Source: Candidatus Omnitrophota bacterium
GTDB taxonomy: Bacteria; Omnitrophota; Gorgyraeia; Zapsychrales; JANLHA01
Reading direction: 5' to 3'
DNA: 32,000 nt
Assembly (NCBI GenBank): GCA_963662715.1
Contig: OY759724.1
Coordinates: forward strand, 3,210,001-3,242,000
Position 1 is the stretch's first letter. Each line of letters starts with the position of its first letter. Made by a program: the position numbers and the translations under genes. The notes under the pieces were generated by a model, which was not told the DNA's origin, made no database searches, and saw only the letters and a program-made list of their open reading frames with translations. Below, one piece after another: positions 8,510 to 32,000 of the stretch.

Positions 8510-8516
8510 TTCTCTT

Positions 8517-15490: not shown

Positions 15491-15729
15491 ATAATACTGC
15501 TTGAACAAGAATTATTTTAATTTATTTACAAAAATAATTCACAAAACCACAAAAAATCAAACACACATAAAAGAGTCACTTTAGAGGCTGAGAGCGGCTC
15601 CTTTAAAAATGTTTCCTCAAGTTAACATAACATATATTATAGGAAGTTATGGAAGTATTTTTTTGGGCCTTTTACAGCCCATTCTCACGCCACCCCCAAA
15701 GGAAAAACAGATAAAGAAACCTGGCCGCG

Positions 15730-16200
15730 TCACATCATTCGCGCCGACCCCGGCTCCGCTTTTTGCCTTTCCATTATAACGTCTTCCTGCAAATCTTCAT
15801 CTTCAGCCGGATCGCCGACACTCTTCATAAGGTCTTTATGCTTCTGCTCAAACCGCTCAATTTCCTTCTTAAGAGTATCCTGAGTATACTCAATCTTCCG
15901 GACACCAACCTGCGCGTCACCCATGGTTATCTTAATGATTTTGCCGTTCACCAGCGCATCGGCAATCTTAAAGCGCGCCTCCCGCAGGATCCTGCCGAAA
16001 CTTGGCCTGGAGACGTGCATGGCCATGGCACCGTCCGATTGCGAAAATCCCTGAAAGTCCGCCAACTTTATCGCCTCAAACTGATCCAAGCTCAATTCAA
16101 CTTCATCCGGACGTCCAGGCTTACCTCGAGGGCTGAAAAGCATAATCTTGGGCATGCTTTGGATATAGCGAACTTTTTTCGGTCTTCCAACTTCAGCCAT
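15730..16200 (-). CDS. DUF134 (UPF0251) family putative DNA-binding protein
   Basis: 156 aa. GRPKKVRYIQSMP...F.P, then LSLDQFEAIKLADFQGFSQSDGAMAMHVSRPSFGRILREARFKIADALVNGK matches the DUF134 HTH core. An acidic C-terminal tail is added. Confidence 0.85.
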   Translation of the reverse strand: MAEVGRPKKVRYIQSMPKIMLFSPRGKPGRPDEVELSLDQFEAIKLADFQGFSQSDGAMAMHVSRPSFGRILREARFKIADALVNGKIIKITMGDAQVGVRKIEYTQDTLKKEIERFEQKHKDLMKSVGDPAEDEDLQEDVIMERQKAEPGSARMM

Positions 16201-16310
16201 TATAAAATCAACCCCTTTGATGATATGCCCAACCGCTCATTACAACCCGCAATTATTTATTAGCATATGCTCAAAATTAAATACACGTTAATTGCCTGCC
16301 CCAGAACACT

Positions 16311-17368: not shown

Positions 17369-18766
17369 TTAAATCTTATTAAATGAAATATTATATTTTT
17401 TCATCTTATTATACAAAGTCGTACGATTAATCCCCAGCACAGCTGCCGCCCGGTTACGATTCCAGCTGCATTCCTCCAGCACGGAAAGAATCATGTCCCG
17501 CTCCGGCTGTTCCAAAACTTTTTTCAAAGACTGGCCATCCACAGGTTTTGTGGCAGCGACAGAAAACTTTTCGGAATTGGGGATATCCCATTTATTAATC
17601 ACATCTGTGCGGCACATGACAACCGCCCCTTCAATCGCGTTCTCCAGCTCACGGATATTTCCGGGCCAATTATACAAAAGGAACATTTTACGGACTTCGT
17701 CCGAAACACTCCTCACGTTCTTATTGTTATTTTTATTATACCGGGCGATAAAGTGCTCTACGATCAATTCTATATCATCCTTGCGCTCCCTTAACGGCGG
17801 CATAGAAATATTGATAACATTAATGCGATAGAACAAATCCTCCCGGAAATCCCCCTGCGACACGAGGTCAACTAAGTTCCGATTTGTGGCGACGATGATT
17901 CGGGCGTCTGTCTTCCTGGTAATGTTATCACCGACACGCTCAAAAACACCGTCCTGCAAAACCCGGAGGAGCTTAACCTGCAAACTGGGGGAAAAAGCAT
18001 CTATTTCATCCAGAAAGACCGTCCCTCCCCTGGCATACTCGAACCGCCCCTCTTTATCCTTGATAGCCCCGGTGAACGCCCCTTTCATATGTCCAAAAAG
18101 CTCGCTTTCGAGCAAAGTCTCAGACAAAGCCCCGCAACTCACTTCGACAAAAGGCTTCTGGCTGCGATTTTGGTCGGTCTCATGGATAGCTCTGGCGACA
18201 AGCCCCTTCCCTGTCCCGCTCTCTCCGGTGACAAGAATCGTCGCGTTGGATGTGGCGACCGACTGAACAACATGATAAACTTTTTGCATTTTCTCACTGC
18301 CGCCGATCATGCTGCAGAAAGAAACCGGGTTGACTTCAGCAATGATCTCCCGCAAATCCCTGTTTTCCTGCAGGATTTCTTTTCGCTCAACAATCTTATT
18401 GATCATAAGTTTTATTTCATTATCATTGATAGGTTTTGTGACATAGTCATAAGCGCCTTTTTTCATGGCGTCAACCGCTGTTTCAATAGACCCGTAGCCG
18501 GTAATAAGAATCACTTCCGTATCCGGAGAAACTTCTTTGATCTTCTCAATCAGCTTCAAACCGCTCATCTCAGGCAGCTTCATATCCGTCAACACGATAT
18601 CAGGAGCATCTTTATTTAAAATTTCTTCATAGGCCTCCTCACCCGAGGCTGCCATACTTGCCCGGAAACCGTCAATCCGCAAAATCTCATAAAGAGATTC
18701 TCTGATAAGCGGCTCATCATCAACGACAAGGATGTTATATTTATTATTACGTTCTTTATTGTTCAT
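17369..18766 (-). CDS. Sigma-54-dependent response regulator (NtrC family bacterial enhancer-binding protein)
   Basis: 465 aa. REC domain (ILVVDDEP...VLTDMKLPEMSG). AAA+ domain with Walker A GESGTGKG and the sigma-54 contact motif GAFTGA. C-terminal Fis-type HTH (NRAAAVLGINRTTLYNKMKKY). Confidence 0.95.
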   Translation of the reverse strand: MNNKERNNKYNILVVDDEPLIRESLYEILRIDGFRASMAASGEEAYEEILNKDAPDIVLTDMKLPEMSGLKLIEKIKEVSPDTEVILITGYGSIETAVDAMKKGAYDYVTKPINDNEIKLMINKIVERKEILQENRDLREIIAEVNPVSFCSMIGGSEKMQKVYHVVQSVATSNATILVTGESGTGKGLVARAIHETDQNRSQKPFVEVSCGALSETLLESELFGHMKGAFTGAIKDKEGRFEYARGGTVFLDEIDAFSPSLQVKLLRVLQDGVFERVGDNITRKTDARIIVATNRNLVDLVSQGDFREDLFYRINVINISMPPLRERKDDIELIVEHFIARYNKNNNKNVRSVSDEVRKMFLLYNWPGNIRELENAIEGAVVMCRTDVINKWDIPNSEKFSVAATKPVDGQSLKKVLEQPERDMILSVLEECSWNRNRAAAVLGINRTTLYNKMKKYNISFNKI

Positions 18767-20099
18767 ATTTTGTCTTAACGGGTATAGAAATCGTAAAAGA
18801 TGTGCCTTTATTCAGGTCGCTTTCTACGTTGATCTGGCCATCATAACTTTTTATGATTTCCGTAACGATGGTCAAACCCAGTCCGCATCCTTTTTCAATA
18901 TCTTTGGTTGTAAAAAAAGGTTCAAAAATATCATCAATCTTATCCCCGGCAATACCACAGCCCGTGTCTGTCACAGAAAAGATAATGTGTCCGTCCATTT
19001 GGGTGGAACACACTTTTATTTCCCCTCCAGGCCCCGTAGCATCAATAGCATTCCGCAAAAGGTTGACCAACACCCGTTCCAGCCCCAGATCCGTAACTTC
19101 CTTGAGTTCGGGATCAAGCTCTTTAGAAACGATAATCCCTTTCTCCACAATATCCGTCTTCAGGCCTTGCAAGGCCTGTTCAACCGAAGAGTTCACGTTA
19201 ATCTTGTGCAGCGAGGGGCCGGACGTACGGGAACAAGCCAAAAGACTTTTTACAATATTGGCCATTCGGTTCAACCCGTTCTTTATTTCCAGAAGGTACC
19301 CGCGAACGACCTCATCGTCCTTTACGTGCTCCAGGCAAAGATTGGTATAACGCATAACCCCGTCCAAAGGGTTATTGAATTCATGAGCGATCCCGCCCGT
19401 TAATTTTCCGATGGTTGCCAGTTTTTCATGCAAAACGATCTGTTTTTTAAGATGACTGGCCTCTTCACTGCTCTTGCCGAGCTTATGTTTTAAATTCTGG
19501 GACTCTTCCTCTACGGATTTAAATTTTTGATAAAGCTGAATACGCCTATAATTCAAAGCGATCTGGCTTGAGAGAAAGTCCAATAGCTGCAATTCGTTGG
19601 AGTTGAAGTGACTGCCGCACTCTTTGTCAGAGAGACTTATAACACCAATAAGTTTATCTTTTATTAATAAGGGGGCACATATAAAAGAAGGTGTTTTATA
19701 ACTCGACCTTGCCTTATAATTCTTAAAACGGTTATCCTGGGCAATGTCTGTAACAAAGATAGGCTTTTTACTGGCGGCGACTCTCCCCACCACCCCTTCA
19801 CCGAGTTTTTTAACCAGGCGCTCCTGCTCCGTCAATTCCATGCCCTGAGCTATCTTAAGGATCAGATCCTTTTCATTGTCATCAAGGATATAAATTGACC
19901 CCCGGTTAGCATCAAACAACTCCATGGTCTTTTTCAGGGAAGTCTCCAAGAGCTCACGCGCGCTTGACACGGCATTCACGGCAGCGCAGATGTCCCCGAT
20001 CTTTTGGAACAGCTCCGATTCTGTAAACTGCTCAAATATATGTGCCTGACTTTTATTGTACATTTGGCTTCTTTTTAACAACAGGCTGCAAACGGACAT
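18756..20099 (-). CDS. Cytoplasmic GAF-domain sensor histidine kinase
   Basis: 447 aa with no obvious TM segment. Contains a GAF domain, an H-box (GGIAHEFNNPLDG), an N-box (LLRNAIDA) and G-boxes (DTGCGI, GCGLGL). The start may instead be Met 20063. Overlaps the response-regulator gene by 11 nt. Confidence 0.92.
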   Translation of the reverse strand: MSVCSLLLKRSQMYNKSQAHIFEQFTESELFQKIGDICAAVNAVSSARELLETSLKKTMELFDANRGSIYILDDNEKDLILKIAQGMELTEQERLVKKLGEGVVGRVAASKKPIFVTDIAQDNRFKNYKARSSYKTPSFICAPLLIKDKLIGVISLSDKECGSHFNSNELQLLDFLSSQIALNYRRIQLYQKFKSVEEESQNLKHKLGKSSEEASHLKKQIVLHEKLATIGKLTGGIAHEFNNPLDGVMRYTNLCLEHVKDDEVVRGYLLEIKNGLNRMANIVKSLLACSRTSGPSLHKINVNSSVEQALQGLKTDIVEKGIIVSKELDPELKEVTDLGLERVLVNLLRNAIDATGPGGEIKVCSTQMDGHIIFSVTDTGCGIAGDKIDDIFEPFFTTKDIEKGCGLGLTIVTEIIKSYDGQINVESDLNKGTSFTISIPVKTKYEQ

Positions 20100-20976
20100 C
20101 GACCCCCTTGTCTTTTAGAGCCCTTAATCCGTTGATTGTCTGCTGCAGATAACCATTATATTTATGAGTCGGATGCTGATTCAAAAAATCCTGATAAATC
20201 GCAATAGGAGTATCAAAGTCTTTTAGATTTGCGACAGACATCGTATTGATCGTTTTAACAGTCAACACCATTTGCTGTGATGTCAAATACTCACTATCGG
20301 CGTACTCTGTCAGCAGTCCCCCGAGCGTCGCTATGCCATTTTTAACGTCACGTTTTGCAAAATACGAAGCCGCAAGCAGCCTCTTGGATTTAAAAGCGAT
20401 CTCTGTTCCGGGATTAGCTTGCACCTTATTGCTGTAAAATGTCAACGCATCCTGCAACGCTCTCTTAGCGTCCTCCTGTTTATTGAGCTTCACGTACAGA
20501 TGCATAATATACAAGGGGATATTAACACCGAGATCCGTTGTCCCGTAGTCGTTCATCAGCCTCCGATAAGCCTGGACGGCTTCGTCATACTTCTTTTCCA
20601 TTTCAAAGCTTTGCCCGATAAGAATCAAGGATTTGGCGTGCGATTCATAATCATCCGGATATTGCGAGATCGTTTCCTGAAAACTCGATCGTGCCTTCAC
20701 GTAATCTTTCTTTAATATATAAATCTTCCCGATCTTGTTATGAATCTTTCGCGATAACACTGCCTCAGGGTGTTGTTTAAGAATTTTCCGGTATTGCGCG
20801 ATCAAATCTTCATAGTTTTGATCAGGAACAGCTTTGGGATCCTGCTCAATTTCTTTGAATTGTTTTTGGGCCTGCCAGAGCTTCTTTTCCAGCTTGTAAT
20901 CACTGGTATCCACCAGGGAAAGCCCCACGAATAAAACTCCGAGGATCACAACAAATAAAATGATTGTCTTTTTCAT
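20053..20976 (-). CDS. TPR-repeat protein with N-terminal membrane anchor or signal
   Basis: 307 aa. N-terminal hydrophobic segment (IILFVVILGVLFVGLSL) followed by repeated TPR-like helical pairs. The start overlaps the upstream gene's stop (ATGA). Confidence 0.75.
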   Translation of the reverse strand: MKKTIILFVVILGVLFVGLSLVDTSDYKLEKKLWQAQKQFKEIEQDPKAVPDQNYEDLIAQYRKILKQHPEAVLSRKIHNKIGKIYILKKDYVKARSSFQETISQYPDDYESHAKSLILIGQSFEMEKKYDEAVQAYRRLMNDYGTTDLGVNIPLYIMHLYVKLNKQEDAKRALQDALTFYSNKVQANPGTEIAFKSKRLLAASYFAKRDVKNGIATLGGLLTEYADSEYLTSQQMVLTVKTINTMSVANLKDFDTPIAIYQDFLNQHPTHKYNGYLQQTINGLRALKDKGVDVRLQPVVKKKPNVQ

Positions 20977-21851
20977 TGCTCTTCTTTCTTTAATAAATAA
21001 TAGGTTGTCATTGTCGTATAATGTATGGCATCAATAAAAACAGAAAGCAGGACAGCGATGACAGCGAGAGCACCAAACAATTCCGGATAGACATTTTCTT
21101 TAAAGAGATTGGAGGCAGATTGCAACACAATCATCGGTAAATACAGTAAAGCCGGCAGCAAAAGCATAAAAAATGTGAACCAAAATGACTTCCATAATGT
21201 TTTAAAATTCGCGGCAAGCGCCGGGAAAAATTTCTTTTTATCAACAATAATCGCCGGAAAAACATAAATAAAGAGTGTTGCTGAAAAAACAGCAAGCAAC
21301 AGGTTCATGTACGGAGCGCTGATCAAGACAGATTGCTTGATAATAAAATACATACCTGTCGTTGAGCGGATAATCAGCGCCCGGGCAATCACAAGCTGAT
21401 GAAGATAAGAAAGGCCCAGCATCGTGGCCACCGGCAAAGAAGCCCCTAAAAACAAGTGGACATAAAAGGAAGCCGCTCGCTTGAAAGCAGCCTTAAAAAT
21501 AGCGGGTTGATTACCGTTAATCGCATTAATGATCGCGATAGAGGTCCCGATAAAGACACTGTTAAATATCATAAAGAGAAAACTTTGCAAAACATTATTC
21601 TGGAACCATTTAGCTAAAATGTAATACGAAAAAGGGTAGTGCAGGAATACAGCTCCCTCTAAACGGCTGATAATCGGGCCGAAAAATTTAACAAGCGGAT
21701 ATCGAGGAGCGAAAAGGAGAATTTCAAAAATCAGCAATTCCACAAACATAATAATAATATAGGGAAAAAGAATCGCCGAATGAGAGAATAAAGTGTTAAC
21801 TGAAGTTTTTAGAAGAGCGAAAGGCTGCCTGGTTTTCTTTGTTGAGGACAT
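20973..21851 (-). CDS. Polytopic integral membrane protein of unknown function
   Basis: 292 aa with about 6-7 hydrophobic helices and no cysteine residues. SD-like GGGGGGAGA upstream of the ATG. First gene of the operon. Confidence 0.65.
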   Translation of the reverse strand: MSSTKKTRQPFALLKTSVNTLFSHSAILFPYIIIMFVELLIFEILLFAPRYPLVKFFGPIISRLEGAVFLHYPFSYYILAKWFQNNVLQSFLFMIFNSVFIGTSIAIINAINGNQPAIFKAAFKRAASFYVHLFLGASLPVATMLGLSYLHQLVIARALIIRSTTGMYFIIKQSVLISAPYMNLLLAVFSATLFIYVFPAIIVDKKKFFPALAANFKTLWKSFWFTFFMLLLPALLYLPMIVLQSASNLFKENVYPELFGALAVIAVLLSVFIDAIHYTTMTTYYLLKKEEQ

Positions 21852-21977: not shown

Positions 21978-22009
21978 AATAAGACAGATCGTAGCCAACC
22001 TGTCTTATT
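21978..22009 (-). terminator. Candidate intrinsic terminator after the PEP-CTERM gene
   Basis: Perfect 10-bp inverted repeat AATAAGACAG/CTGTCTTATT with a 12-nt loop. On the minus strand it is followed by TTTTATTAATATTT. The stem is AT-rich, so the terminator would be weak. Confidence 0.45.
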
Positions 22010-22077: not shown

Positions 22078-22386
22078 TTATATCTTTGTTTTCTTTTTTA
22101 AGGTCTTCATGTAACTCATCGCCACAATACCACTTCCTAAAAGCAACATTGTCGCCGGCTCAGGATTATGAAGCTGCGTGATAATTTCATCCCCTCCTCC
22201 TGACGGTAAAGGATTCGTGCCAGTAGTGACAGAAGACGGGTCAGTTTCAAAAAGGCCACCCACAGACGGCTCACTGCCACCTCCGCCACTATTACACCCA
22301 TAGACAAATGGGAGCAACACGCTAAAAAGAAACAAATTATGCAAGCGAGCAATTAACGTTTTCATAAATTTACATTCTCCCTTCAT
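22078..22386 (-). CDS. Small PEP-CTERM sorting-domain protein with lipoprotein-like signal peptide
   Basis: The C-terminus NPEPATMLLLGSGIVAMSYMKTLKKKTKI has PEP, then a TM helix, then a basic tail. The N-terminal signal ends in FVYGC followed by a Gly/Ser-rich region. The true start may be ATG 22365 (MKTLIARL...), preceded by AAGGGAG. Confidence 0.85.
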   Translation of the reverse strand: MKGECKFMKTLIARLHNLFLFSVLLPFVYGCNSGGGGSEPSVGGLFETDPSSVTTGTNPLPSGGGDEIITQLHNPEPATMLLLGSGIVAMSYMKTLKKKTKI

Positions 22387-22424
22387 TTACACTAATTTTC
22401 TGATTGACTACACAGATATTATAA

Positions 22425-22439
22425 GCAATTAATGTGCCA
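22425..22439 (-). promoter_or_regulatory. Sigma-54 (RpoN) -24/-12 promoter
   Basis: Minus strand reads TGGCACATTAATTGC(T), an exact match to TGGCAC-N5-TTGCW. It sits about 40-60 nt upstream of the two possible PEP-CTERM start codons. Confidence 0.8.
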
Positions 22440-22570
22440 ACACGCTAGAAACCCCCTTTAAACCCTGCTCATAATGCAAACACTTATGTATTAATATGTT
22501 ACAACCAATAAATACATAACTCTGATATTCTGTCATACCATGTCCGTGACTGTCACCCCACAAAATGCGT

Positions 22571-25282
22571 TCATTTTTTTATACATTGTTGTTTTATAGC
22601 CCCCACCACATCCCGCAAACCGGCAGCGACACCGTCATACTCATTCCCCTCCCCCGAAATATCAGAAATCAAGGCATCAACAGTTTTCGGTGCTCCGATG
22701 AAAACCTTAACCGGGGCAGGTCTGGGGAAGCGGCGGGTTCTCGGCCATGCCTTATGAGAACCTTCAATGAAGACCGGGACGACAGGGACGGCGAGCTCTT
22801 TCAACAAGATTCCAACGCCTCTTTTGAATTGATTCATTTCTCCGTCAATGGATCTTTGACCTTCCGGGAAATAACACACGATCTTCCCCTGCCGGAGGAC
22901 AAAGGAGCATGCCCGCAGAGCTTCAATAAGGTTATGACTGATTTCCAGGGGAATCAGTCTGGCGATTTTAATAAAAGGCCTGAAATAAAACCGCTCAAAA
23001 AATTTGCTGTATCCGACAAAATATGTCTGCAAGGCTATTTTGTAAGGCAAAGAACACACAACAAACAAGCCGTCCAGATAACTGGCATGGTTTGGGCAAA
23101 TGAGATACGGCCCTTTCTCGGGAAGATTGTGCCCCCCTTCCGTTTTCAAAAAAAAGAATATCTTGAAGACCAGCTTACAAAGCGAGATAACAATAATATT
23201 AAAAATCAGGGCCAGAGGTCCGAAAAACAGCTTAATTCTGTTAATTGTGTTTTCCTGAGGACTTTCGAGCAGAATTTCTTCCCATCGGACGCTCTTGTCT
23301 TCTTTGAAGGATTGCTCGCCATCAGGAACAACGGTCTTAAGATGGTTCATGAGCTCCCGAATCGTGTTACACATAAAAAATTTCATGGACTGCTCGTCAT
23401 CGAGCTCTAGGTTCAACTGCTCCTGGATATTTAACAAAAGCTCAATTCTGCCCAAAGAATCCAGCCCCAAATCCAGCTCCAAATGGTCTTCTTCTCTGAC
23501 ATCTCTCTGTAAGGTTTCCCGGACAAACAACAAGGCGGACTGTGTCATGCTTTGAAAAGGGGCATCTCCCCCCCCACGGTCTCCCGGAGGATTATCCTGG
23601 CGCCCCGAGGTCTTTTGCCGGGAATAGAGGGGCTCCAGCTCATATCTTTTAATCTTGCCCAGACGGGTCCTGGGCAAAGGGGTCTGGGATATGGAAAATC
23701 CCTGTATCCGTTTGTAGGTCGGGAGCCTGACTGAAACATTGTCTATCTCCCACTTGATTTTCTCCCGGATATTTGAAACCTGCTGCAGACGGAAATACTC
23801 CTCATCAATGACGATTACAGCAACCAGTCGTTCACTCCCCGGGAAAAAAGCGCCTTCCTTGGAAACGAGCACGGCGAGCTCTTTAATAAAAGGAATCTGC
23901 TGGTACTCCCTTTCCACTTCTTCAGGATAAATATTCTTCCCGCTGCCGAGGACAATAAGCTCTTTCTTCCGTCCGGCAATAAACAGATAACCTTCCTCAT
24001 CCAGGCACCCCAGATCGCCGCTGAAGAACCACCCGTCCTTAAAGACCTCTTTTGTCTGCTCTTCTGCCTGATAATAACCTTTCATGACATTCGGGCCTTG
24101 AATAAGGATCTCCCCTACGCCGGCTTCATCGGGATCAAGAATCCTGACATCACATCCCGGCAAAGGCTTGCCCACCGACCCGACTTTAATGCCTTCCACA
24201 GGAGTAAAAGAAACAACGGGAGAGGTCTCGGTTAAGCCATATCCTTCCAGAATAGAGAAACCCCAGGACAAAAAAGAACGCGCGACTTGAGGATCCAATT
24301 TCGCCCCCCCGGAAACCAGGTGTCTCACCTGACCGCCGAAGGCCTGATGCACCCGGCCGAATAAATATTTATTAAAATTTCGCCCTGAGACACACCCCAT
24401 GGCCTGAAAAACAGGCGCCAGAAAGGAGAGGATAAAACGGGTAAAAAAAGGCAGCGAAGCGATCCGCTGCTTAATTGATCTTTCCAGGAGAAAAAAGACC
24501 TGAGGAACCCCGACCAGGAGAGTTGTCCTGGTGGCCTGCATAGCCTTTGCCAGTTCCAATGAACCGATCCCCTCCGGATAAACAACCTGAGCTCCCTTCA
24601 GAAGCGGAATTAATAACGTGGTTGTAAAAGCATAGGCATGATGCAAAGGAAGAAACGACAGAAGAATATCCTGACTCTGGATAATATGATAGGATTCAAT
24701 GGCCTGGCAGTTCGACAGCAAATTATGATGCGTCAGCATAACAGCTTTCGGGAGATCTGTTGTCCCGGAAGTATAAAAAAGGACAGCCAGGTCTTCCCCA
24801 TCCTCCCCCCTGGCCTCATTTTCGGAAAAACGATCACAAGCCCCGCCGCCCTGCCTTAAATGATCCAAGAATGATTTAGAGTCAACGGCAAGTAATGGAA
24901 TTCCGGTGATCTGCTCTCCCCATTTTTGAAACATTTTCTGCGATAAAATCACCATTTTCGCCTGAGAATGACGAATAACATTCTCAATCTGTTCCCTGGA
25001 ATATTGAATATCCAGCGGGACAGCTACCGCGCGCGCATACATAACCGCAAAAAATGAGAGAGAAAAACCAGTCTGATTGTCCAGCAAAAGGATGACCCTG
25101 TCCCCGGGAGAAACGTTCTTTGCTTTAAGGTGTTCCCCCAGACGCACGACGTCATCCAGAAGGTCTCGATAAGGGATAGAGCTAACAGACTCTTTCCGAT
25201 AAGACACTAGAGCGGTTTTATCTGAGTGAATTTGGGCAGAGTGCCGGAAAGCTTTAAAGATTTGCTGTTCGACAGTTGACAT
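22571..25282 (-). CDS. Tri-domain fusion: AMP-forming fatty-acid adenylase/ligase + acyl carrier domain + PlsC-type (LPLAT) acyltransferase
   Basis: 903 aa. Adenylation motifs YTSGTTDLPKAV, GYGLTET, GDLG...GRKKELIVLGSGKNIYPEEVE and LGKIKR. Carrier domain with LGLDSLGRIELL (phosphopantetheine Ser). A hydrophobic segment follows. Then acyltransferase motifs NHASYLD (HX4D), FPEGQRS and VPVVPVFIEGS. Confidence 0.92.
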   Translation of the reverse strand: MSTVEQQIFKAFRHSAQIHSDKTALVSYRKESVSSIPYRDLLDDVVRLGEHLKAKNVSPGDRVILLLDNQTGFSLSFFAVMYARAVAVPLDIQYSREQIENVIRHSQAKMVILSQKMFQKWGEQITGIPLLAVDSKSFLDHLRQGGGACDRFSENEARGEDGEDLAVLFYTSGTTDLPKAVMLTHHNLLSNCQAIESYHIIQSQDILLSFLPLHHAYAFTTTLLIPLLKGAQVVYPEGIGSLELAKAMQATRTTLLVGVPQVFFLLERSIKQRIASLPFFTRFILSFLAPVFQAMGCVSGRNFNKYLFGRVHQAFGGQVRHLVSGGAKLDPQVARSFLSWGFSILEGYGLTETSPVVSFTPVEGIKVGSVGKPLPGCDVRILDPDEAGVGEILIQGPNVMKGYYQAEEQTKEVFKDGWFFSGDLGCLDEEGYLFIAGRKKELIVLGSGKNIYPEEVEREYQQIPFIKELAVLVSKEGAFFPGSERLVAVIVIDEEYFRLQQVSNIREKIKWEIDNVSVRLPTYKRIQGFSISQTPLPRTRLGKIKRYELEPLYSRQKTSGRQDNPPGDRGGGDAPFQSMTQSALLFVRETLQRDVREEDHLELDLGLDSLGRIELLLNIQEQLNLELDDEQSMKFFMCNTIRELMNHLKTVVPDGEQSFKEDKSVRWEEILLESPQENTINRIKLFFGPLALIFNIIVISLCKLVFKIFFFLKTEGGHNLPEKGPYLICPNHASYLDGLFVVCSLPYKIALQTYFVGYSKFFERFYFRPFIKIARLIPLEISHNLIEALRACSFVLRQGKIVCYFPEGQRSIDGEMNQFKRGVGILLKELAVPVVPVFIEGSHKAWPRTRRFPRPAPVKVFIGAPKTVDALISDISGEGNEYDGVAAGLRDVVGAIKQQCIKK

Positions 25283-25293
25283 AAATGTCGAAT

Positions 25294-25998
25294 TTATTCT
25301 TTGGTCAAAGTTCCTTGATCAAGGTTTTCAATAAAGTACTCAAAAAACTTTGGAAATTTCCTCCGGACTTCCTGTTCCATCACAGGGAGCTTCCCGAGAT
25401 AAGGCTTAACAGGCCCGTAGACATCGACTTCTTCTCCGATGCAGTCAAATCTGAATCCATGAATCCGCAAGAGAAGCCATAAGCTTTTTTCCATTAACGC
25501 GTACCAATACGTAATGCCACGGCGCTTACTCTCATGATACAATTCCCGGTAGAGTCCAAAAGCCATGGGCTTGGCACGTCGGAGAAAATCATTTTGGGCC
25601 CCGTTAACTTTTTTATCGTCCACTTGCGGTTCATAGTACATTCCGTCATCGCGCCGACGCCGCAGTTGTTTGCTGATGACAAGCCGGGATATCTCGGCAT
25701 ACCCCATTTCCGGCAGAGGATCCGGTTTTATTGTGATATCCGGGCAATGCCTCTCAATAGGCAAATTCAACTCCCCCGGGACGATCATGCGCATAGTCCC
25801 GACAACATGCCCCGCATCGTTCAGAGCTGCAAAATGAACAGACTGGGCATCATATTCATCCTTTTCCAGGCACTGGGGATAATTTTCTTCTTTAATAAAA
25901 CCGCATTCCCGGCAATAGACCTGAAAACGCAACTTATAAACTTCCTGCATTAACTCATGCTCGTCGATATCAACTCTCTTAAATGTGAATTTTTCCAT
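25294..25998 (-). CDS. N-acyl amino acid synthase-like GNAT (LuxI/FeeM fold; PEP-CTERM/exosortase system-associated acyltransferase type), paralog 1
   Basis: 234 aa. LRFQVYCRECGFIKEENYP..LEKDEYDAQSVHFAALNDAGHVVGTMRMI ... AEISRLVISKQ ... ITYWYALME matches this family as I recall it. The stop lies 11 nt before the tri-domain gene's start. Confidence 0.8.
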   Translation of the reverse strand: MEKFTFKRVDIDEHELMQEVYKLRFQVYCRECGFIKEENYPQCLEKDEYDAQSVHFAALNDAGHVVGTMRMIVPGELNLPIERHCPDITIKPDPLPEMGYAEISRLVISKQLRRRRDDGMYYEPQVDDKKVNGAQNDFLRRAKPMAFGLYRELYHESKRRGITYWYALMEKSLWLLLRIHGFRFDCIGEEVDVYGPVKPYLGKLPVMEQEVRRKFPKFFEYFIENLDQGTLTKE

Positions 25999-26008
25999 GA
26001 CTGGTGTT

Positions 26009-26037
26009 ATGCTAACATATCATGTCCTACGTGTCAA
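26009..26037 (-). promoter_or_regulatory. Candidate sigma-70 promoter (extended -10) for paralog 1
   Basis: Minus strand reads TTGACA (26037-26032), a 17-nt spacer ending in TGT, then TAGCAT (26014-26009). Only 10 nt separate the -10 from ATG 25998. Confidence 0.55.
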
Positions 26038-26134
26038 CATGAACTCAACAGATCGCAGGGGATGTTTTAATATATATAATACTTACCTTAATTAATACGG
26101 GGGGGATCAGGGAGAGGCTCCCGCAGCCAGGCCT

Positions 26135-26839
26135 TTAATTAGCCCTCTGAAAGACAGGAACAAAATGGGATTCCAAAATAGGGCAATTATGTTGAAAAAT
26201 AAAATTCTGGATGGACCGCTCAATATCGGAAATTGAGACAACATAAGGGAAAACAGGGCCGAAATAGCTCACCTCCGGCCCGATGCAGGTGAACTTAAAG
26301 CCGTATTTGGCAAAAAGCACGTACAATTTCCTTTCCATCAAGGCATACCAATGGGTAATATCCAAACGCTTGCTTTCCGCAAACACGCTGCTACAAAGCC
26401 CTATAGTGATACACTTAGCAATACACCGGGACAGCGCATCAGAATACTTTGAGGGACAGTTCTTACTGTCCTCACACAAGCGCAGAAAATCCTTTTTCTT
26501 ACGGAACTTCTCGCTGACAATCAAACGCGAAATCTCGGCAAACCGCAGCTGGGGACATATCTTTCTGGGATTGAGGAACAGAGAACTCTTCTGTTCCAAA
26601 GGCAGCGGATGTCTGCCGGGCAGAATCAGGCGGATAGCCCCTACAACGTCTCCTTCACTATCAATCGCCGCAAAATGCTGGGCTTGCGAGTCATATTTAT
26701 CATGCTCTAAGCCGTCCGGGTAATCATCTGAATCAATATATCGGCATTCCTCTACATAGACATCATAACGCAAACGGAAAATCTGCTCCATCAGGTGAGG
26801 CTCATCAGAATATACTTTTTTGTATATCAACTCTTTCAT
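26135..26839 (-). CDS. N-acyl amino acid synthase-like GNAT (PEP-CTERM/exosortase system-associated acyltransferase type), paralog 2
   Basis: 234 aa, the same length as paralog 1 and by eye roughly one third to 40% identical. Shared blocks include LRYDVYVEEC, YP.GLEHDKYDSQAQHFAA, VVGAIRLILPG, FAEISRL, ITHWYALME and GFKFTCIGPEV. Confidence 0.8.
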   Translation of the reverse strand: MKELIYKKVYSDEPHLMEQIFRLRYDVYVEECRYIDSDDYPDGLEHDKYDSQAQHFAAIDSEGDVVGAIRLILPGRHPLPLEQKSSLFLNPRKICPQLRFAEISRLIVSEKFRKKKDFLRLCEDSKNCPSKYSDALSRCIAKCITIGLCSSVFAESKRLDITHWYALMERKLYVLFAKYGFKFTCIGPEVSYFGPVFPYVVSISDIERSIQNFIFQHNCPILESHFVPVFQRAN

Positions 26840-26851: not shown

Positions 26852-26880
26852 ATGCTAGCATCTGAACCTCAACATGTCAA
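26852..26880 (-). promoter_or_regulatory. Candidate sigma-70 promoter (extended -10) for paralog 2
   Basis: Minus strand reads TTGACA (26880-26875), a 17-nt spacer ending in TGC, then TAGCAT (26857-26852). 12 nt separate the -10 from ATG 26839. The -10 lies inside the perfect palindrome ATGCTAGCAT. Confidence 0.55.
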
Positions 26881-26959: not shown

Positions 26960-26984
26960 TGACCTGCCCCCATTAGTTGTGCCA
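26960..26984. repeat. IS terminal inverted repeat (orfB-proximal end)
   Basis: TGACCTGCCCCCATTAGTTGTGCCA pairs with the reverse complement of 28166-28191. Confidence 0.8.
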
Positions 26985-27824
26985 AAAGTTGTGAGAGTTT
27001 AACGGAGATGGCTGAAGCCATCTTGGTTGAATAGCTTCCGGTGCCGGAGGCTTATAACCCAATGATCCATGCGGACGGATCGTATTATATTCCCACCGCC
27101 AGCGTTCCACCAACACCTGAGCTTCATACAATGTATCAAAAATTTCCAGATTTAACAACTCATCCCGTAGTCGCCCGTTAAAGGATTCAATATATCCATT
27201 TTCCCAAGGGCTTCCCGGTTCAATATACAACGTTTCCACTCCGATCCTTCTCAACCACCAACGGACGCGTTCAGCGATAAATTCCGGCCCATTATCCGAA
27301 CGAATATATAACGGCACTCCTTTTTCAATAAACAATCGAGATAAAACATCAATCACATTCCTGGAATTGAGTTTGCGCCCAACTTCTATGGCCAGGCATT
27401 CCCGGCTATACTCATCAATGATCGTTAACATCTTTATTGGTCGGCCATTTGATGTCCGGTCATGAACAAAATCATAACTCCAGACGTGGTTGTGATGTTC
27501 TGGCCGTAATCGGATGCAGGAACCGTCATTCAGCCATAACCTCCTTCGTTTAGGTTGTTTCATCGGAACTTTAAGACCTTCCCGTCTCCATAAACGTTCG
27601 ACTCGTTTATCATTTAATGGCATCCAGCCCGATTCGCGTAACAATTCAGCAACTTTTCGGTATCCATACCGTCCATATTGCTTGACCATATTGATCATAG
27701 CCTCAACTAATGCTCCTTCATCATATCGGCCTGAACATCTATATTGCTGTGTTGATCTTGCTTGGCTAAGAATTTTACACAACCGCCTTTCTGATACTTT
27801 GGGGAATTTCTCCTTCGCCCACAT
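26973..27824 (-). CDS. IS3-family transposase OrfB (DDE/rve integrase domain)
   Basis: 283 aa from the first Met. The frame is open upstream to nt 27863. DDE-region motifs [15 protein letters not shown] and [10 protein letters not shown], plus [15 protein letters not shown]. Probably expressed as an OrfAB fusion. Confidence 0.93.
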
Positions 27825-27850
27825 AATCGCCCGGCGTTTCTTGGCCGGGC

Positions 27851-28126
27851 TTAGAAGTTTCCCTCATTGACTTCCTTCAAAATAGCGTTATCTAATGATA
27901 AGTCAGCCACCAGTTTCTTTAATCGGGTATTCTCCCGTTCTAGCTCTTTATACTTCTTGGCTTGATCTATTTTCATCCCGCCGTATGCCTTGCGCCAACG
28001 GTAATAGGTCTGTTCCGATATGCCCGCTTGTCGGCAGGCATCTCCGGTGTCCAGCCCTTTACCAAGGTGTATTTCAACTTCTCGTAATTTCGTAATTATT
28101 TCTTCTGATTTGAATCTTTTACCCAT
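27851..28126 (-). CDS. IS3-family transposase OrfA (HTH, leucine-zipper-like tail)
   Basis: 91 aa. ...[21 protein letters not shown]...[25 protein letters not shown] is typical of IS3/IS911-type OrfA. Confidence 0.92.
27857..27863 (-). other. Programmed -1 ribosomal frameshift heptamer G_GGA_AAC
   Basis: The minus strand reads GAG GGA AAC TTC TAA in the orfA frame. Slipping to GGG AAA C enters the orfB frame, which is open from this exact point. The site fits the X_XXY_YYZ pattern and lies 2 codons before the orfA stop. Confidence 0.7.
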
Positions 28127-28165
28127 TTTTGCCCCTTTCTGTTATCATTATTCTATCACAAAAAG

Positions 28166-28191
28166 TGGCTCAACTTTTGGGGGGTGGGTCA
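28166..28191. repeat. IS terminal inverted repeat (orfA-proximal end)
   Basis: The reverse complement is TGACCCACCCCCCAAAAGTTGAGCCA. Confidence 0.8.
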
Positions 28192-28440: not shown

Positions 28441-29220
28441 ATGAAAATAAATCAGAAAATACGCAGTCATTTGTTGGGAGCAATCCTCTTTTCCCTTCTT
28501 TGCCCTTTAACAGTTGCCGGCGCACAGGAGGAAATTTCGGCCAAGGAATTTATTAAACGCTCCGATGACCTTATGCGGGGAGAAACGAATCAAGGCATCT
28601 ATTCCATGCGCATCAAGACTCCCAACTGGGAACGCACGCTGTCCCTGCAGGTTTACAATTCCGGGCGCAATAAGACGTTTATCCGCATCCTCTCTCCGGC
28701 CAAGGAAGCAGGTATCGGCACGTTACGGATCGATAATGAGATGTGGAATTACCTTCCCAATATAGAAAAAACGATTAAAATCCCCCCTTCCATGATGCTT
28801 CAGCCCTGGATGGGAAGTGATTTTGCCAATGATGATCTGGTCAAAGAAAGCAGCATTGTGGAAGATTACACGCATAGAATCGTAAGTCAACGCTCCTTCA
28901 AGGATAAAACCATTCTGAAAATTCAACTCACCCCTAAACCCGGAGCCCCTGTGATCTGGGGAAAAATATATCGCTGGATCCGGCAAGAAGATTATCTGCC
29001 TTTGAAAGAAGCCTATTATGACGAAAAAGGCAAACTGATTAAGACCCTTTATTATCTTAATGAAGGTCCGGTTTCTGACCGTGTCATTCCCAGGACCTGG
29101 ACCATGAAGTCAGAAGTCAAAGAAGGACACATGACCACGATAAAATTGCAGGATGTTGAGTATAATAAACCCATACCCGATGATATCTACACTCTCATAC
29201 ATCTTAAAAAAATCCAGTAA
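28441..29220 (+). CDS. LolA-like outer membrane lipoprotein-sorting protein family (periplasmic carrier fold)
   Basis: 259 aa with a signal peptide (…LTVAGAQE). The blocks FIRILSPAKEAGIGTLRIDNEMWNYLPNIEKTIKIPPSMMLQPWMGSDFANDDL are characteristic of the LolA_like family usually found beside FtsX-type ABC permeases. Confidence 0.82.
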   Translation: MKINQKIRSHLLGAILFSLLCPLTVAGAQEEISAKEFIKRSDDLMRGETNQGIYSMRIKTPNWERTLSLQVYNSGRNKTFIRILSPAKEAGIGTLRIDNEMWNYLPNIEKTIKIPPSMMLQPWMGSDFANDDLVKESSIVEDYTHRIVSQRSFKDKTILKIQLTPKPGAPVIWGKIYRWIRQEDYLPLKEAYYDEKGKLIKTLYYLNEGPVSDRVIPRTWTMKSEVKEGHMTTIKLQDVEYNKPIPDDIYTLIHLKKIQ

Positions 29221-29279: not shown

Positions 29280-30506
29280 ATGTTTACATTTATAAAAATT
29301 GCCATTCGGAACATCATTCGCAATAAAAAAAGATCACTGATCACGATCTCGGCTGTCGGTTTCGGATTAGGGGCCCTGATCTTCATCTGGGCTTTTGTCG
29401 AAGGCGCCCACAAACAAATGATCGAAAACTACACGTCGTATTTAACGAGCCATATTCTTATTCACCGAAAGGGTTATCAGCAAAAGAACAATCTGGAGAC
29501 CTATATTGAAATCCCCAGGAACATCCTCTCTTTTCTGCAACAAAGACCGGAAATTGCCGCGTTTGCCCCCCGGGTCAAAGCAGAGGGGTTATTAAGCTCT
29601 GCCGAATCTTCTTCCGGTGTTTTAATTTTTGGGATCGACCCTCTGCAGGAGACAAAAGTCAGCACATTAAGCAAACGCATCAAACAGGGCCGTTTTCTGA
29701 CCCCGGACAGTCATGACAATATCATTATCGGAGAAGCCCTGGCAAAAAACCTGAATGTCGGGCTGGGAGACAAGGTCGTGATCATGTCGCAGGCCCTGGA
29801 TGGCAGTATCGCCGCCGGAGCCTTCCGTATCCAGGGTTTGCTGGACACGGGGGTGGAAGAAATTGACAAAGGGGTCGTGCTGCTTCTGCTGCCGGACTCC
29901 CAAGAGCTTTTCGTTATGAACGATAAAATCTCGGAGATTGCCATTCGGCTCAAGTCTGTTGAGAAGGCAAAATCCGTCGCCAAAAAACTCAGCAGGGCCC
30001 TCCCTGCCTCTGAACTGGAAATACTGCCCTGGCAAACCATATCTCCCATGATGCAGCAATGGATAGAATTTGACAACGCTTTTATTTGGATCATCGTCAT
30101 CGTCGTCATGATTGTTGTCGCCATCGGCATCCTCAACACCGTTCTCATGGGCGTCTTGGAACGAACCAGGGAGTTTGGCATCCTGCTGGCCTTAGGAACT
30201 CATCACAAGCAAATCGTGGCGATGGTGGCCTGGGAATCCGTCTTCCTGGGGATTATCGGCAGCCTTTGGGGCCTGGCCTTAGGAGTATCATTAAGCAGTT
30301 ATTTCGGGAAAGTCGGTATAGATTTATCCTTATTCACCAGCGCCCTCAACTCATTTTATATGGACGCTTTTATTTATCCGGTCATTCATATGGGTTATAT
30401 ATCGGTATCTGTGGCCCTGGTTTTGTTTACAAGTATCCTCGTGTCAATCTATCCGGCCTGGCATGCGGCCCATTTAAAACCCGTTGATGCTATACGGACT
30501 ATTTAG
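29280..30506 (+). CDS. ABC transporter permease, FtsX/MacB/LolCE type
   Basis: 408 aa. N-terminal AIRNIIRNKKRSLITISAVGFGLGAL, a large periplasmic loop after TM1, and a C-terminal three-TM FtsX domain ending in SIYPAWHAAHLKPVDAIR. Confidence 0.9.
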   Translation: MFTFIKIAIRNIIRNKKRSLITISAVGFGLGALIFIWAFVEGAHKQMIENYTSYLTSHILIHRKGYQQKNNLETYIEIPRNILSFLQQRPEIAAFAPRVKAEGLLSSAESSSGVLIFGIDPLQETKVSTLSKRIKQGRFLTPDSHDNIIIGEALAKNLNVGLGDKVVIMSQALDGSIAAGAFRIQGLLDTGVEEIDKGVVLLLLPDSQELFVMNDKISEIAIRLKSVEKAKSVAKKLSRALPASELEILPWQTISPMMQQWIEFDNAFIWIIVIVVMIVVAIGILNTVLMGVLERTREFGILLALGTHHKQIVAMVAWESVFLGIIGSLWGLALGVSLSSYFGKVGIDLSLFTSALNSFYMDAFIYPVIHMGYISVSVALVLFTSILVSIYPAWHAAHLKPVDAIRTI

Positions 30507-30515: not shown

Positions 30516-31190
30516 ATGGCTCTTATAGAAACAAAAAATCTCAAAAAAGTCTACACGATAGGAAAAAACATCAGAGCCGAAGCTCTGCGCGGCATCAACC
30601 TGCAGATTACGGAAGGGGAATTCACGGCCATTGCCGGCCCTTCCGGTTCGGGGAAATCTTCCCTGTTAAATATCATCGGGGCTTTAGACACCCCCACAGA
30701 AGGCCTTATCCTTCATGACGGGCAGGATGTCAGCCAGAAAACCCCGAAGCAACTAGCCTCCTTCAGATTACGGCATATCGGATTTGTCTTCCAGGCCTAT
30801 AATCTTATCAACACATTGACCGCTCTTGAGAATGTTGAATACATTATGCTGCTGCAGGGCGTCAGCTGGCATACCCGCCAGAAACGCTCGAAAGAAATAC
30901 TAAAACGCGTCGGGCTGAACGACTACATCCACCGGTTCCCTAATGAGATGAGCGGGGGACAGCAACAGCGGGTTGCGGTGGCCAGGGCCATGGCCGCTGA
31001 ACCGCGCATAATCTTGGCTGATGAACCCACGGCCAATTTAGATTCAAAAACAGCACAGGAATTGCTGAATCTTATGCTAGAATTAAACGATGAAAAAAAG
31101 ATCACCTTTGTTTTTTCAACTCACGACAGCCTAATCATGGAACGGGCCAAACGTCTCGTAATCTTAAAAGATGGAGTCATTGTCTCATGA
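30516..31190 (+). CDS. ABC transporter ATP-binding protein (MacB/LolD-like)
   Basis: 224 aa. Walker A GPSGSGKSS, signature MSGGQQQRVAVARA, and Walker B ILADEPT. Confidence 0.95.
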   Translation: MALIETKNLKKVYTIGKNIRAEALRGINLQITEGEFTAIAGPSGSGKSSLLNIIGALDTPTEGLILHDGQDVSQKTPKQLASFRLRHIGFVFQAYNLINTLTALENVEYIMLLQGVSWHTRQKRSKEILKRVGLNDYIHRFPNEMSGGQQQRVAVARAMAAEPRIILADEPTANLDSKTAQELLNLMLELNDEKKITFVFSTHDSLIMERAKRLVILKDGVIVS

Positions 31191-32000
31191 AAAACTTTCT
31201 TTTGCTGGTATCCGTATTAATATTAGCCGTGACAACGGATGTTTTTGCCGAGGACTCAACGGACACTTTCAGTCTGAGCGGTTATTATAAAGCGCTCGTC
31301 GTCGGGAGCAAATCCCTGGCGACCAAGGAAAACATTTTTGCGGCGACCAACCGGCTCAGGCTGGAACTTAAAGCGCAAAAAGACCCTTGGCAGTTTTATT
31401 TGACCATTGACAACGAAGCTATTATCAATGACTTCGCCAATACGGCAGATTTCGCCTTTATCCGCTCACGCACCCAGGACAAAGTCGCGGCTATCGACGC
31501 AGACGTTGTTTCGGTCGACAACGACCATTTATACCTGAAACATTCCATCTACCGGGCTTTTATCAAATATTACACGCCGGAATTTCAGGCGGTGATCGGG
31601 AAACAACTCATCGATTGGGGACGTTTGAGGTTCTATTCTCCGGTCGACATCTTCAATTCCGTAGGTCCCGTCAATCTGGAACAAGACGAACGGATCGGGG
31701 TCGATGCCATCAACCTCAATTATTCCCCGGAGGCCTTCGTAGGCATCAATCTTGTCGCCGCTCCTGACAGCAAGGATGAAAATGCCAGCGGAGGGCTCAA
31801 GATTTATAAAACAATCTCGACATATGACCTGGCCTTGCTGGCGGCCTCTGTCCGTAAAGATCAGATATACGGGTTCTCCTTTGACGGCTACATTAAAGAT
31901 GCGGGATTCCGGGGAGAATTCACCTATACGGTTCAAGATGACAAACGGGAATTCCCCCGGGCAGCCCTGGGGATCGATTACCGATTCAATCCAAAATGGT
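31187..32000 (+). CDS. Exported protein, putative outer-membrane beta-barrel, 3'-truncated by the window edge
   Basis: Absent from the ORF track because it has no stop in the window. The ATG overlaps the ATPase stop (ATGA). Signal peptide MKNFLLLVSVLILAVTTDVFA/ED. The frame stays open for about 271 codons to the window end, with alternating hydrophobic/aromatic patterns (SLSGYYKALVV, RLRLELKA, FSFDGYIKDAGFRGEFTY). Confidence 0.7.
   Translation, partial: MKNFLLLVSVLILAVTTDVFAEDSTDTFSLSGYYKALVVGSKSLATKENIFAATNRLRLELKAQKDPWQFYLTIDNEAIINDFANTADFAFIRSRTQDKVAAIDADVVSVDNDHLYLKHSIYRAFIKYYTPEFQAVIGKQLIDWGRLRFYSPVDIFNSVGPVNLEQDERIGVDAINLNYSPEAFVGINLVAAPDSKDENASGGLKIYKTISTYDLALLAASVRKDQIYGFSFDGYIKDAGFRGEFTYTVQDDKREFPRAALGIDYRFNPKW

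Follow-up and report, generated by a model that had tools for sequence, protein, structure and literature searches.

A conserved Omnitrophota locus that may make and export a fatty-acylated amino-acid lipid beside PEP-CTERM genes

The window analysed here is the whole stretch of 32,000 nucleotides (nt) from a Candidatus Omnitrophota bacterium (contig OY759724.1 of assembly GCA_963662715.1), and its subject is a group of minus-strand genes at 22078-26839 together with the genes on either side. The group encodes two N-acyl amino acid synthases (NAS) of the TIGR03694 family, a fusion protein that joins a fatty-acid adenylation domain, an acyl carrier and a PlsC-type O-acyltransferase, and a small PEP-CTERM protein. 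Our preferred reading, in which we place about even confidence, is that the locus is a conserved Omnitrophota-type pathway that makes and exports a fatty-acylated amino-acid lipid, either a lipoamino-acid or an acyloxyacyl aminolipid, with dedicated acyl activation and with export to the outer membrane. The surrounding genes suggest that this lipid locus may be wired into a PEP-CTERM surface and biofilm regulon.

A sequence-only reading of the same DNA had reported four minus-strand open reading frames, all of which are present at exactly the coordinates it gave, and had proposed that they form an undescribed, self-contained module. That interpretation is partly supported. The individual parts belong to known families, and their combination was not found described in the searchable literature, where searches combining Omnitrophota, exosortase and aminolipid terms returned no description of the module. 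The tri-domain architecture itself is not new, having been noted as ElbD-like homologues lacking the FAR domain (PMC9131029). Nor does the module stand as four genes, for it is accompanied by a membrane protein, a TPR protein, a kinase with a sigma-54 regulator, and a divergent Lol-like operon. The interest of the locus lies in an NAS gene placed 11 nt from the gene for a PlsC domain supplied with fatty-acid activation and a carrier of its own, a pairing kept across an uncultured phylum. It lies also in the way the locus would connect lipid synthesis, and an exporter of the lipid or lipoprotein type, with PEP-CTERM/exosortase systems, an association catalogued since 2011 without a mechanism. 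A 2011 J. Bacteriol. paper, whose existence was confirmed through reference lists, reportedly links long-chain NAS to PEP-CTERM/exosortase loci.

The synthase genes and the tri-domain fusion

The two synthases, GNAT_A (26135..26839, minus strand) and GNAT_B (25294..25998, minus strand), are each 234 amino acids (aa) long and score 163.8 and 185.4 bits on TIGR03694, above the curated NCBIfam cutoff of 111.95; this is the accession that the sequence-only reading had given, correctly, for the subfamily. Both match the Pfam families Acetyltransf_5, FeeM and Autoind_synth, the last of these partially (profile positions 6-109 of 183). On models of acyl-homoserine lactone (AHL) synthases they reach 27.9 bits for a cutoff of 250, and 24.9 and 18.5 bits for a cutoff of 292, in line with the expectation that they are not ordinary LuxI enzymes. 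On the OlsB model NF052554, GNAT_A scores 18.9 bits for a cutoff of 350 and GNAT_B gives no match. A candidate catalytic residue, Glu102 in an AEISRL motif, is invariant in 15 sequences that include both paralogs, and the equivalent glutamate is required for activity in Nas354 (PMC4897644). Searching the sequences of the PDB with the GNAT gave marginal matches only. A structure model of GNAT_B, built on 15 homologs (pLDDT 79.8), found its best PDB matches through Foldseek in LasI (5.5e-8), RpaI, FeeM (2g0b, E 1.1e-7, TM 0.71), TofI and BjaI, so the description of a LuxI/FeeM fold holds. With 40% identity between the two proteins over 215 aa, the earlier picture of two diverged paralogs of this fold is confirmed.

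The paralogs are not conserved to the same extent. GNAT_B is the conserved copy, immediately upstream of the fusion, and GNAT_A is a variable second paralog whose orthologs are 62-65% identical in the four closest relatives (L001, L081, L088 and L089); outside these loci a second copy is either absent or only 37-52% identical. Since only GNAT_B consistently adjoins the fusion and the second copy varies in presence and position, the suggestion that each paralog serves an acceptor of its own is weak.

The fusion (22571..25282, minus strand) is a protein of 903 aa made up of a long-chain acyl-AMP/ACS-type adenylation domain, an acyl carrier and a PlsC/LPLAT-type O-acyltransferase. Its start codon at 25282 follows the GNAT_B stop at 25294 after 11 nt, and the domain order that had been read from the sequence is upheld by Pfam, with AMP-binding at residues 12-404 (271.9 bits), PP-binding at 588-648 (31.8 bits) and the acyltransferase family PF01553 at 714-839 (73.5 bits). 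The catalytic motifs are intact and are kept in nearly all of 120 fusion homologs: the P-loop T171, the carrier GLDS motif with S609, N731-H732-x4-D737, and PEG at 806-808. More than 120 homolog clusters share the architecture, mostly from Omnitrophota; most of the named homologs are Candidatus Omnitrophota, and some come from metagenome bins labelled Planctomycetales.

Two surveys show how regularly NAS and fusion occur together. The first took the fusion as its starting point, mapping the genes around homologs from 60% down to 40% identity, and found an NAS directly upstream of the fusion in all seven distinct Omnitrophota-type loci (L001, L004, L081, L082/L083, L084, L085 and L086). In most of these seven the genes for a membrane protein, a TPR protein, a kinase and a sigma-54 regulator follow the fusion. 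L085 is the exception, its block being permuted with rpoN between the halves, which are still linked. The four closest relatives keep all thirteen genes in order and lack the insertion sequence that interrupts the window. Scanning the genome collection with the single fusion protein yielded mostly generic AMP-ligases and about six full-length loci. A metagenome scan with an alignment of the GNATs was more productive and gave 68 loci, from which a clade was drawn at 45% identity or above, with enough downstream sequence in 48. The fusion lies immediately downstream of the GNAT in 33 of these 48 and in none of the 11 distant GNAT loci sampled.

In L084 and L004 the fusion is longer (985-998 aa) and is preceded by a full-length FeeM-type NAS (PF21926, 124.6 bits), so the pairing persists through non-orthologous replacement of the synthase. 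We regard this as the strongest single argument that NAS and fusion work together. The trio of GNAT, fusion and PEP-CTERM gene had been expected to be conserved as a unit, and here the outcome is divided: the GNAT-fusion pair is widely kept, and the small PEP-CTERM gene occurs in the closest clade only.

Two further observations concern the synthases. Genes for c-di-GMP-binding PilZ proteins recur beside the module (L084:8677-9117, L004:7158-7580, and also L082, L083 and L085), and in L084 and L004 they stand directly upstream of the FeeM-type NAS. These neighbours echo the described NAS-PilZ fusion proteins Nas343 and Nas354 (PMC4897644). There is also an orphan GNAT lineage, 51-56% identical to GNAT_B, in L102, L105, L123, L126 and L130, where the context is quite different but itself conserved, and consists of a divergent GntR-like regulator, class I fumarate hydratase-like genes, a MiaA-like P-loop protein and a downstream protein of ~440 aa, and where fusion, exporter and PEP-CTERM genes are absent.

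The divergent Lol-like operon and the downstream genes

Divergent from the GNATs, on the plus strand, is an operon that begins with a LolA-like periplasmic carrier (28441..29220; PF17131, 184.2 bits for a cutoff of 30), followed by a LolC/E-like permease of the MacB type (29280..30506; MacB_PCD and FtsX, with 174.6 bits on TIGR02212 lolCE for a cutoff of 362.45) and a LolD-like ABC ATPase (30516..31190; 223.6 bits on TIGR02211 for a cutoff of 307.75). Because the lolCE and LolD scores lie below the equivalog cutoffs, the system is Lol-like and is not called LolCDE. The next gene (31187..32000) is cut by the window end and encodes the N-terminal 271 aa of a secreted, barrel-like protein of ~380 aa with a signal peptide; the fragment is 75% identical to a 381-aa protein of L081 and belongs to no Pfam family. 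We would place this protein in the outer membrane. The LolA-like gene is divergent from the GNATs in L001, L081, L082, L086, L088-L092, L094, L098, L101, L103 and others, and in more than 20 loci the operon runs from the LolA-like, LolCE-like and LolD-like genes through the ~380-aa secreted protein to a PaaK-like protein of ~475 aa and sometimes a ThiF protein. The secreted barrel-like family was found in 23 sources (22 loci and the window).

The last two genes of this operon have no role in the mechanism proposed below. The adenylating protein of ~475 aa, which resembles PaaK and F390 synthetase, ends the operon in relatives (21 loci; L081:2757-4184), and a ThiF-family E1-like enzyme does so in some (10 loci; L081:1909-2724). 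The 475-aa protein was considered as a homologue of the GH3-like OlsH and set aside, as it has no Pfam match and only weak matches of the PaaK and F390-synthetase type.

Elsewhere the NAS is accompanied by a different export apparatus. L084 replaces the Lol-like set with an MMPL/RND transporter, ThiF, a LolA-like/DUF1329 protein, DUF1302 and PilZ, and L004 has the same set except for the MMPL transporter. In the metagenomic locus L143 (1-20642), a canonical XrtA/PEP-CTERM exopolysaccharide (EPS) locus by its pepcterm_export (250 bits for a cutoff of 180) and chain-length determinant (605 for 279) scores, the genes flanking a TIGR03694 gene (286 bits) encode an HpnN-like RND transporter, a ThiF-nitroreductase fusion of the PRK08223 type, a LolA-like protein and a DUF1302-like protein of 795 aa, and the tri-domain fusion is absent. 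This neighbourhood suggests that the link between NAS and exporter may be general and cross phyla. Two unrelated inner-membrane engines, each with a LolA-fold carrier, thus stand beside NAS genes, which suggests that the product is membrane-bound and moved outward. Export of an envelope component is the role proposed for DUF1302, DUF1329 and RND proteins on the basis of mutant cofitness (10.1101/072470), and another group has put forward an esterase role instead.

In the window an IS3-family element (26973..28126, minus strand) sits in the intergenic region between GNAT_A and the LolA-like operon and splits the two halves of the locus. It carries the transposase frames OrfB (26973-27824) and OrfA (27851-28126), with rve, HTH_21 and HTH_Tnp_1 matches, and its boundaries rest on terminal inverted repeats near 26982-27000 and 28162-28180, a global alignment with L088 not being clean to the base. 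The four syntenic close relatives lack the element and have an intergenic region of ~370 bp, and the insertion is therefore recent. Promoter-like elements persist on both sides of it. On the GNAT side a sigma-70-like promoter of GNAT_A (26852..26880, minus strand; TTGACA-17-TAGCAT with a TG-extended -10, a consensus match only, at 10 of 12 positions) lies between the GNAT_A start and the end of IS3, so the core promoter survives the insertion. A second candidate of the same form (26009..26037, minus strand; TTGACA-17-TAGCAT, TG-extended, likewise a consensus match only) precedes the unit of GNAT_B and fusion. The palindrome ATGCTAGCAT was weighed as a shared operator and rejected, since it is the TG-extended -10 element (TGnTAGCAT) of these ordinary sigma-70-type promoters.

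Downstream of the fusion, the gene MEM292 (20973..21851, minus strand) encodes a conserved 292-aa polytopic membrane protein of ~8 helices. It follows the fusion in L001, L004, L082-L086, L093, L094, L098, L108, L110-L113, L118, L121, L124, L127, L128, L135 and L138, and a word search of 5.8 billion proteins found homologs in 12 clusters only. The protein has no cysteine; its invariant residues include R50, H71 (in an LHYP motif), N112 and E257. No Pfam or NCBIfam family matches it even at E<=5. Its model is all-helical (pLDDT 76.7) and has no significant PDB fold match, the weak similarities reaching at best E 0.35, with TM ~0.5 to CTL1 and 0.49-0.60 to CysZ transporters. Two identities for MEM292 were considered. 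An exosortase was rejected on the lack of cysteine, of a family match at E<=5 and of a PDB fold match, and a split PrsK sensor found no support, with no PrsK or other family match at that threshold.

The regulatory genes follow on the same strand. A TPR protein (20053..20976) has TPR Pfam matches and an N-terminal hydrophobic segment and is syntenic in relatives. The GAF-domain histidine kinase (18756..20099), syntenic at 35-88% identity, is soluble, having no transmembrane segment, and its AtoS, ZraS and PrsK-like matches all fall below cutoffs. The sigma-54-dependent response regulator (17369..18766) scores 455 bits on AtoC and is syntenic at 50-86% identity, and a protein with PocR and GAF sensory domains by Pfam (16311..17354) is syntenic in most loci. 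Scores on the Prs equivalogs stay below the cutoffs: 419.3 for 502.6 on PrsR (PEP_resp_reg, TIGR02915), 90.9 for 300 on PrsK and 27.6 for 312.2 on PrsT.

The small PEP-CTERM protein (22078..22386, minus strand) has 102 aa, or slightly fewer if translation starts at the second ATG at 22365. It passes the family thresholds narrowly (TIGR02595, 17.2 for a cutoff of 16; PF07589, 20.8 for 20.7). Its tail, NPEPATMLLLGSGIVAMSYMKTLKKKTKI, combines the PEP motif, a hydrophobic helix and a lysine-rich basic cluster at the extreme C-terminus, and is kept in orthologs. The protein also has a signal peptide and a lipobox-like LLPFVYGC, features that the sequence-only reading had not described. A terminator-like hairpin (21978..22009, minus strand), with a 14-pair stem and a T-run, follows the gene.

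As had been proposed, the gene has a sigma-54 promoter of its own. The -24/-12 element TGGCACATTAATTGC (22425..22439, minus strand; TGGCAC-N5-TTGC) is the sole exact site in the window, lies ~40-60 nt upstream of the two candidate ATGs, and precedes the orthologous gene in each of the four closest relatives. The sigma-54 regulator encoded nearby is likely to activate it. A conserved palindrome, GTGACAGTCAC (22546..22556, minus strand; core GAC-A-GTC), starts 14 nt 3' of the fusion stop codon and ~112 nt upstream of the -24 element; it is present in the window and in all four relatives, is followed by GGACA and GACA repeats, and is a candidate upstream activator site, likely for an enhancer-binding protein. 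An inverted repeat, TTATGTATT-N18-AATACATAA, was rejected as an activator site because relatives do not keep it, which leaves the palindrome the better candidate. When 16 related loci were scanned for sigma-54 sites, none was placed consistently before other PEP-CTERM genes or operon starts.

Orthologs of the small gene occur only in the four loci of the closest clade; in more distant loci the membrane-protein gene follows the fusion after a gene-free spacer of 82-207 bp. The trio as first drawn is thus not conserved, and lipidation of the adjacent PEP-CTERM protein, which had been offered as an alternative function of the module, cannot be its general one. Within the clade, the copy in L001 is truncated to 66 aa (L001:12891-13091), and L081 has both its membrane-protein gene and its kinase gene broken into two pieces (13402-14279 and 15150-16494); assembly errors or decay are possible in both loci.

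The wider association with PEP-CTERM systems rests on other genes. Larger PEP-CTERM genes lie within 10 kb in six of the seven Omnitrophota-type loci (L004, L081, L082, L084, L085 and L086), often with a Bac_transf sugar transferase within the same distance, and they are missing where the fusion stands without partners. The annotations of the related loci show no exosortase gene within 10 kb, which describes existing annotation, as no exosortase-model search was run.

Further from the module, the window encodes a 611-aa protein with a C-terminal CPBP/Rce1-like intramembrane protease domain (5312-7147; PF02517). Haft is said to have proposed this protease class as 'myxosortases' for other C-terminal sorting signals. 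A three-subunit molybdenum hydroxylase with MocA-like and XdhC-like maturation genes nearby (7177-10868, 11270-11860 and 14234-15034) is unrelated to the lipid module; its alpha subunit scores 699 bits on 4-hydroxybenzoyl-CoA reductase for a cutoff of 995. In L081, the XdhC, PPIase and DUF134 genes keep synteny with the module. An Rfam scan of the window returned no structured RNAs at gathering thresholds.

A proposed pathway and its alternatives

We infer the following route from gene content and family precedent in all its parts: the individual reactions and their substrates, the supply of acyl groups to the GNATs by the fused carrier, the cargo that is exported and the regulatory connections. 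In a first step the fusion, through its adenylation domain, would activate a free long-chain fatty acid, possibly a 3-hydroxy one, and load it on its own carrier at Ser609. GNAT_B would take the acyl-carrier thioester and N-acylate an amino acid, for which a basic acceptor such as ornithine or lysine is possible by family precedent, and GNAT_A probably does likewise with another acceptor or acyl chain. The membrane-associated PlsC domain could then add a second acyl chain from the carrier, giving an acyloxyacyl aminolipid by the logic of OlsB/OlsA, or some other O-acylated derivative. From the inner membrane the LolCDE-like extractor of the divergent operon would pass the lipid to the LolA-like periplasmic carrier and the secreted barrel-like protein, and so to the outer membrane. 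Joint control of envelope genes, among them the gene for the sigma-54-driven small PEP-CTERM lipoprotein, may fall to the GAF kinase, the sigma-54 regulator and the sensory proteins.

The chemistry has precedents for both of the putative acylation steps. The Neisseria meningitidis enzyme annotated to the TIGR03694 family (NmNAT) produces N-(S)-3-hydroxyacyl-ornithine and -lysine (PMC9762135). Such products are lyso-aminolipids, the substrate type of OlsA/PlsC-like O-acyltransferases, and in the known aminolipid pathways an N-acyltransferase is followed by an O-acyltransferase of the PlsC type (PMC11631085; PMC12971839). Further acylation of NAS products was unreported according to a 2024 review (PMC11631085).

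Several observations weigh against this pathway. The fusion does not follow the GNAT in 15 of the 48 assessable clade loci, and at least five of these 15 share a context of GntR-like regulator and MiaA-like gene. Conversely, the fusion occurs at 34-40% identity with neither GNAT nor other partners in L002, L003, L005 and L087, in bins labelled Planctomycetia/Planctomycetales, Lentisphaerae and Methylomirabilales, so in other phyla it has a function that does not need NAS. Taken by itself, the PlsC domain most resembles acyl-ACP-dependent lysophospholipid acyltransferases of the Aas type (101.7 bits, well short of the cutoff) and gave no OlsA-specific match, its assignment being to the superfamily only. 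In this genome IS3 splits the two operons, though both keep promoter-like elements. LolCDE-like systems normally carry lipoproteins, not free lipids. For every protein of this clade the product is a prediction from family precedent. Finally, NAS products often have no 3-hydroxyl, the group needed for a second acylation (PMC11631085).

One alternative is that the locus is a signal synthase with its sensor, which we think unlikely. The GNAT would make a diffusible N-acyl amino acid signal from fatty acyl supplied by the fusion, the ABC system would export it, and the GAF kinase or the PocR-GAF protein would sense it, with the sigma-54 regulator switching on PEP-CTERM and biofilm genes in the manner of LuxI/LuxR. 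The GNAT fold is that of AHL synthases, the synthase and the sensor-regulator set keep synteny in nearly every locus and remain together even when permuted (L085 and L135), and PilZ genes recur nearby; the small PEP-CTERM gene is driven by a sigma-54 promoter with a conserved upstream palindrome, and N-acyl amides of the TIGR03694 family are known to signal on host receptors (PMC9762135). A diffusible signal, however, gives the conserved PlsC domain nothing to do and leaves the LolA-like carrier and barrel-like protein without a role, these being better suited to a membrane-bound cargo; moreover the GAF kinase is cytoplasmic, and no sigma-54 promoters were found before the other PEP-CTERM genes of more distant loci.

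It is equally doubtful, in our view, that NAS and fusion are neighbours by chance. On this account the fusion is a fatty-acid scavenger like Aas or ElbD that re-acylates lysophospholipids or glycerol-phosphate in the service of general membrane lipid synthesis, and the GNAT draws on housekeeping acyl-ACP for its N-acyl amino acids. Among curated models, Aas-type enzymes do match the fusion and its PlsC domain best, the fusion stands alone in the four partnerless loci, known NAS enzymes work in E. coli with the host acyl-ACP (PMC4897644; PMC9762135), and ElbD-like ACS-ACP-AGPAT proteins without the FAR domain are known from several phyla (PMC9131029). Chance fits poorly with an 11-nt gap in the window, with immediate adjacency in 33 of 48 loci and with a pairing kept when the NAS type is swapped, and the Aas scores are far below their cutoffs (296 for 1221) in a protein whose domain order is reversed.

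A more novel proposal extends the aminolipid pathway, and we judge it improbable. An amine-bearing aminolipid made by the NAS-fusion pair, such as an ornithine or lysine lipid, would be the acceptor onto which exosortase transfers PEP-CTERM proteins, its amine serving as the nucleophile on their tails and the lipid as their C-terminal anchor; Lol-like machinery, or RND proteins with a LolA-like carrier, would then move the lipidated proteins, or the lipid itself, outward. The motive is an analogy with archaeosortase and rhombosortase. Were it true, the proposal would explain why TIGR03694 tracks PEP-CTERM systems across phyla, name what exosortase attaches its substrates to, and account for a lipoprotein-type extractor beside a synthase. 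The TIGR03694 family is defined by association with PEP-CTERM/exosortase systems, PEP-CTERM neighbourhoods are found here and in the XrtA locus L143, and the exporter looks more like LolCDE with LolA, which extracts lipoproteins, than like a transporter of bulk lipid. On the other side, no exosortase is annotated near any of the annotated loci, and N. meningitidis, which has the NAS enzyme, is not known to have a PEP-CTERM system. The published record is likewise divided: the product of the N. meningitidis enzyme keeps a free side-chain amine (PMC9762135), and the related archaeosortase and the analogous rhombosortase are tied to C-terminal lipid attachment, the exosortase acceptor being unknown (PMC6098224; 10.1101/2023.06.07.544157), but PEP-CTERM proteins are described as heavily glycosylated and EPS-associated, not lipidated (10.1101/2023.06.07.544157).

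Comparison with known systems

With the described NAS of the TIGR03694 family the window GNATs share an above-cutoff score, the conserved glutamate, the FeeM/LuxI fold and surroundings of PEP-CTERM genes. The described members are proteobacterial single genes that were studied in E. coli with host acyl-ACP, whereas in the window the GNAT is coupled to a fusion for activation, carriage and O-acylation and to exporter and regulator genes.

The fusion itself has two known counterparts. ElbD of Myxococcus xanthus (Lorenzen et al. 2014, via PMC9131029) carries ACS, ACP and AGPAT-like domains in the same order on one polypeptide; compared with its published description, the window fusion lacks the N-terminal FAR-like reductase, AMP-binding starting at residue 12. 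ElbD serves ether-lipid synthesis in the elb operon, and the partner of the window fusion is an NAS. The architecture without FAR1 is noted in PMC9131029 as 'ElbD-like homologues lacking FAR1' in several phyla, with no lipid data. Aas likewise joins adenylating activation of fatty acids to a PlsC-type domain, which consumes the acyl-ACP formed in situ, and it gives the best curated HMM matches, but these are far below the cutoffs (296.4 bits for 1221 on NF006386 and 165 for 886 on NF005959), it has no fused carrier, and its domain order is the reverse of the synthetase, ACP and acyltransferase seen here.

In the divergent operon the window has a MacB-type permease, an ATPase and a LolA-fold periplasmic protein, as LolCDE/LolA does; the operon differs in adding the secreted barrel-like protein and the PaaK-like adenylating enzyme, and in its sub-equivalog scores. 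The alternative loci, with MMPL/RND proteins beside DUF1329-like and DUF1302 proteins, resemble the DUF1302/DUF1329/RND export systems. The regulatory genes recall the XrtA regulators PrsK, PrsR and PrsT, as a histidine kinase, a sigma-54 response regulator and a TPR protein lie beside PEP-CTERM genes in the window too. The differences are that the window kinase is soluble and carries a GAF domain where PrsK is polytopic, that MEM292 and the PocR-GAF protein are separate, and that the scores are below the equivalog cutoffs.

The closest parallel to the proposed chemistry is with OlsB/OlsA and GlsB/GlsA, where a PF13444 N-acyltransferase beside a PF01553 O-acyltransferase with an HX4D motif follows the same logic. 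The window GNATs are not OlsB, and the O-acyltransferase shares one chain with an adenylation domain and a carrier, where the known pathways rely on AcpP. OlsF, with its Pfam 19576 and OlsB-like domains, and the OlsH/OlsI set of a GH3-like enzyme and an alpha/beta-hydrolase differ from the window locus in domain content. A 2026 review recognizes OlsBA, OlsF and OlsH/OlsI as the three ornithine-lipid pathways and leaves PEP-CTERM unmentioned (PMC12971839; PMC12493201). Beside these three the window locus offers a concrete, clonable candidate for what may be a fourth acyloxyacyl aminolipid route.

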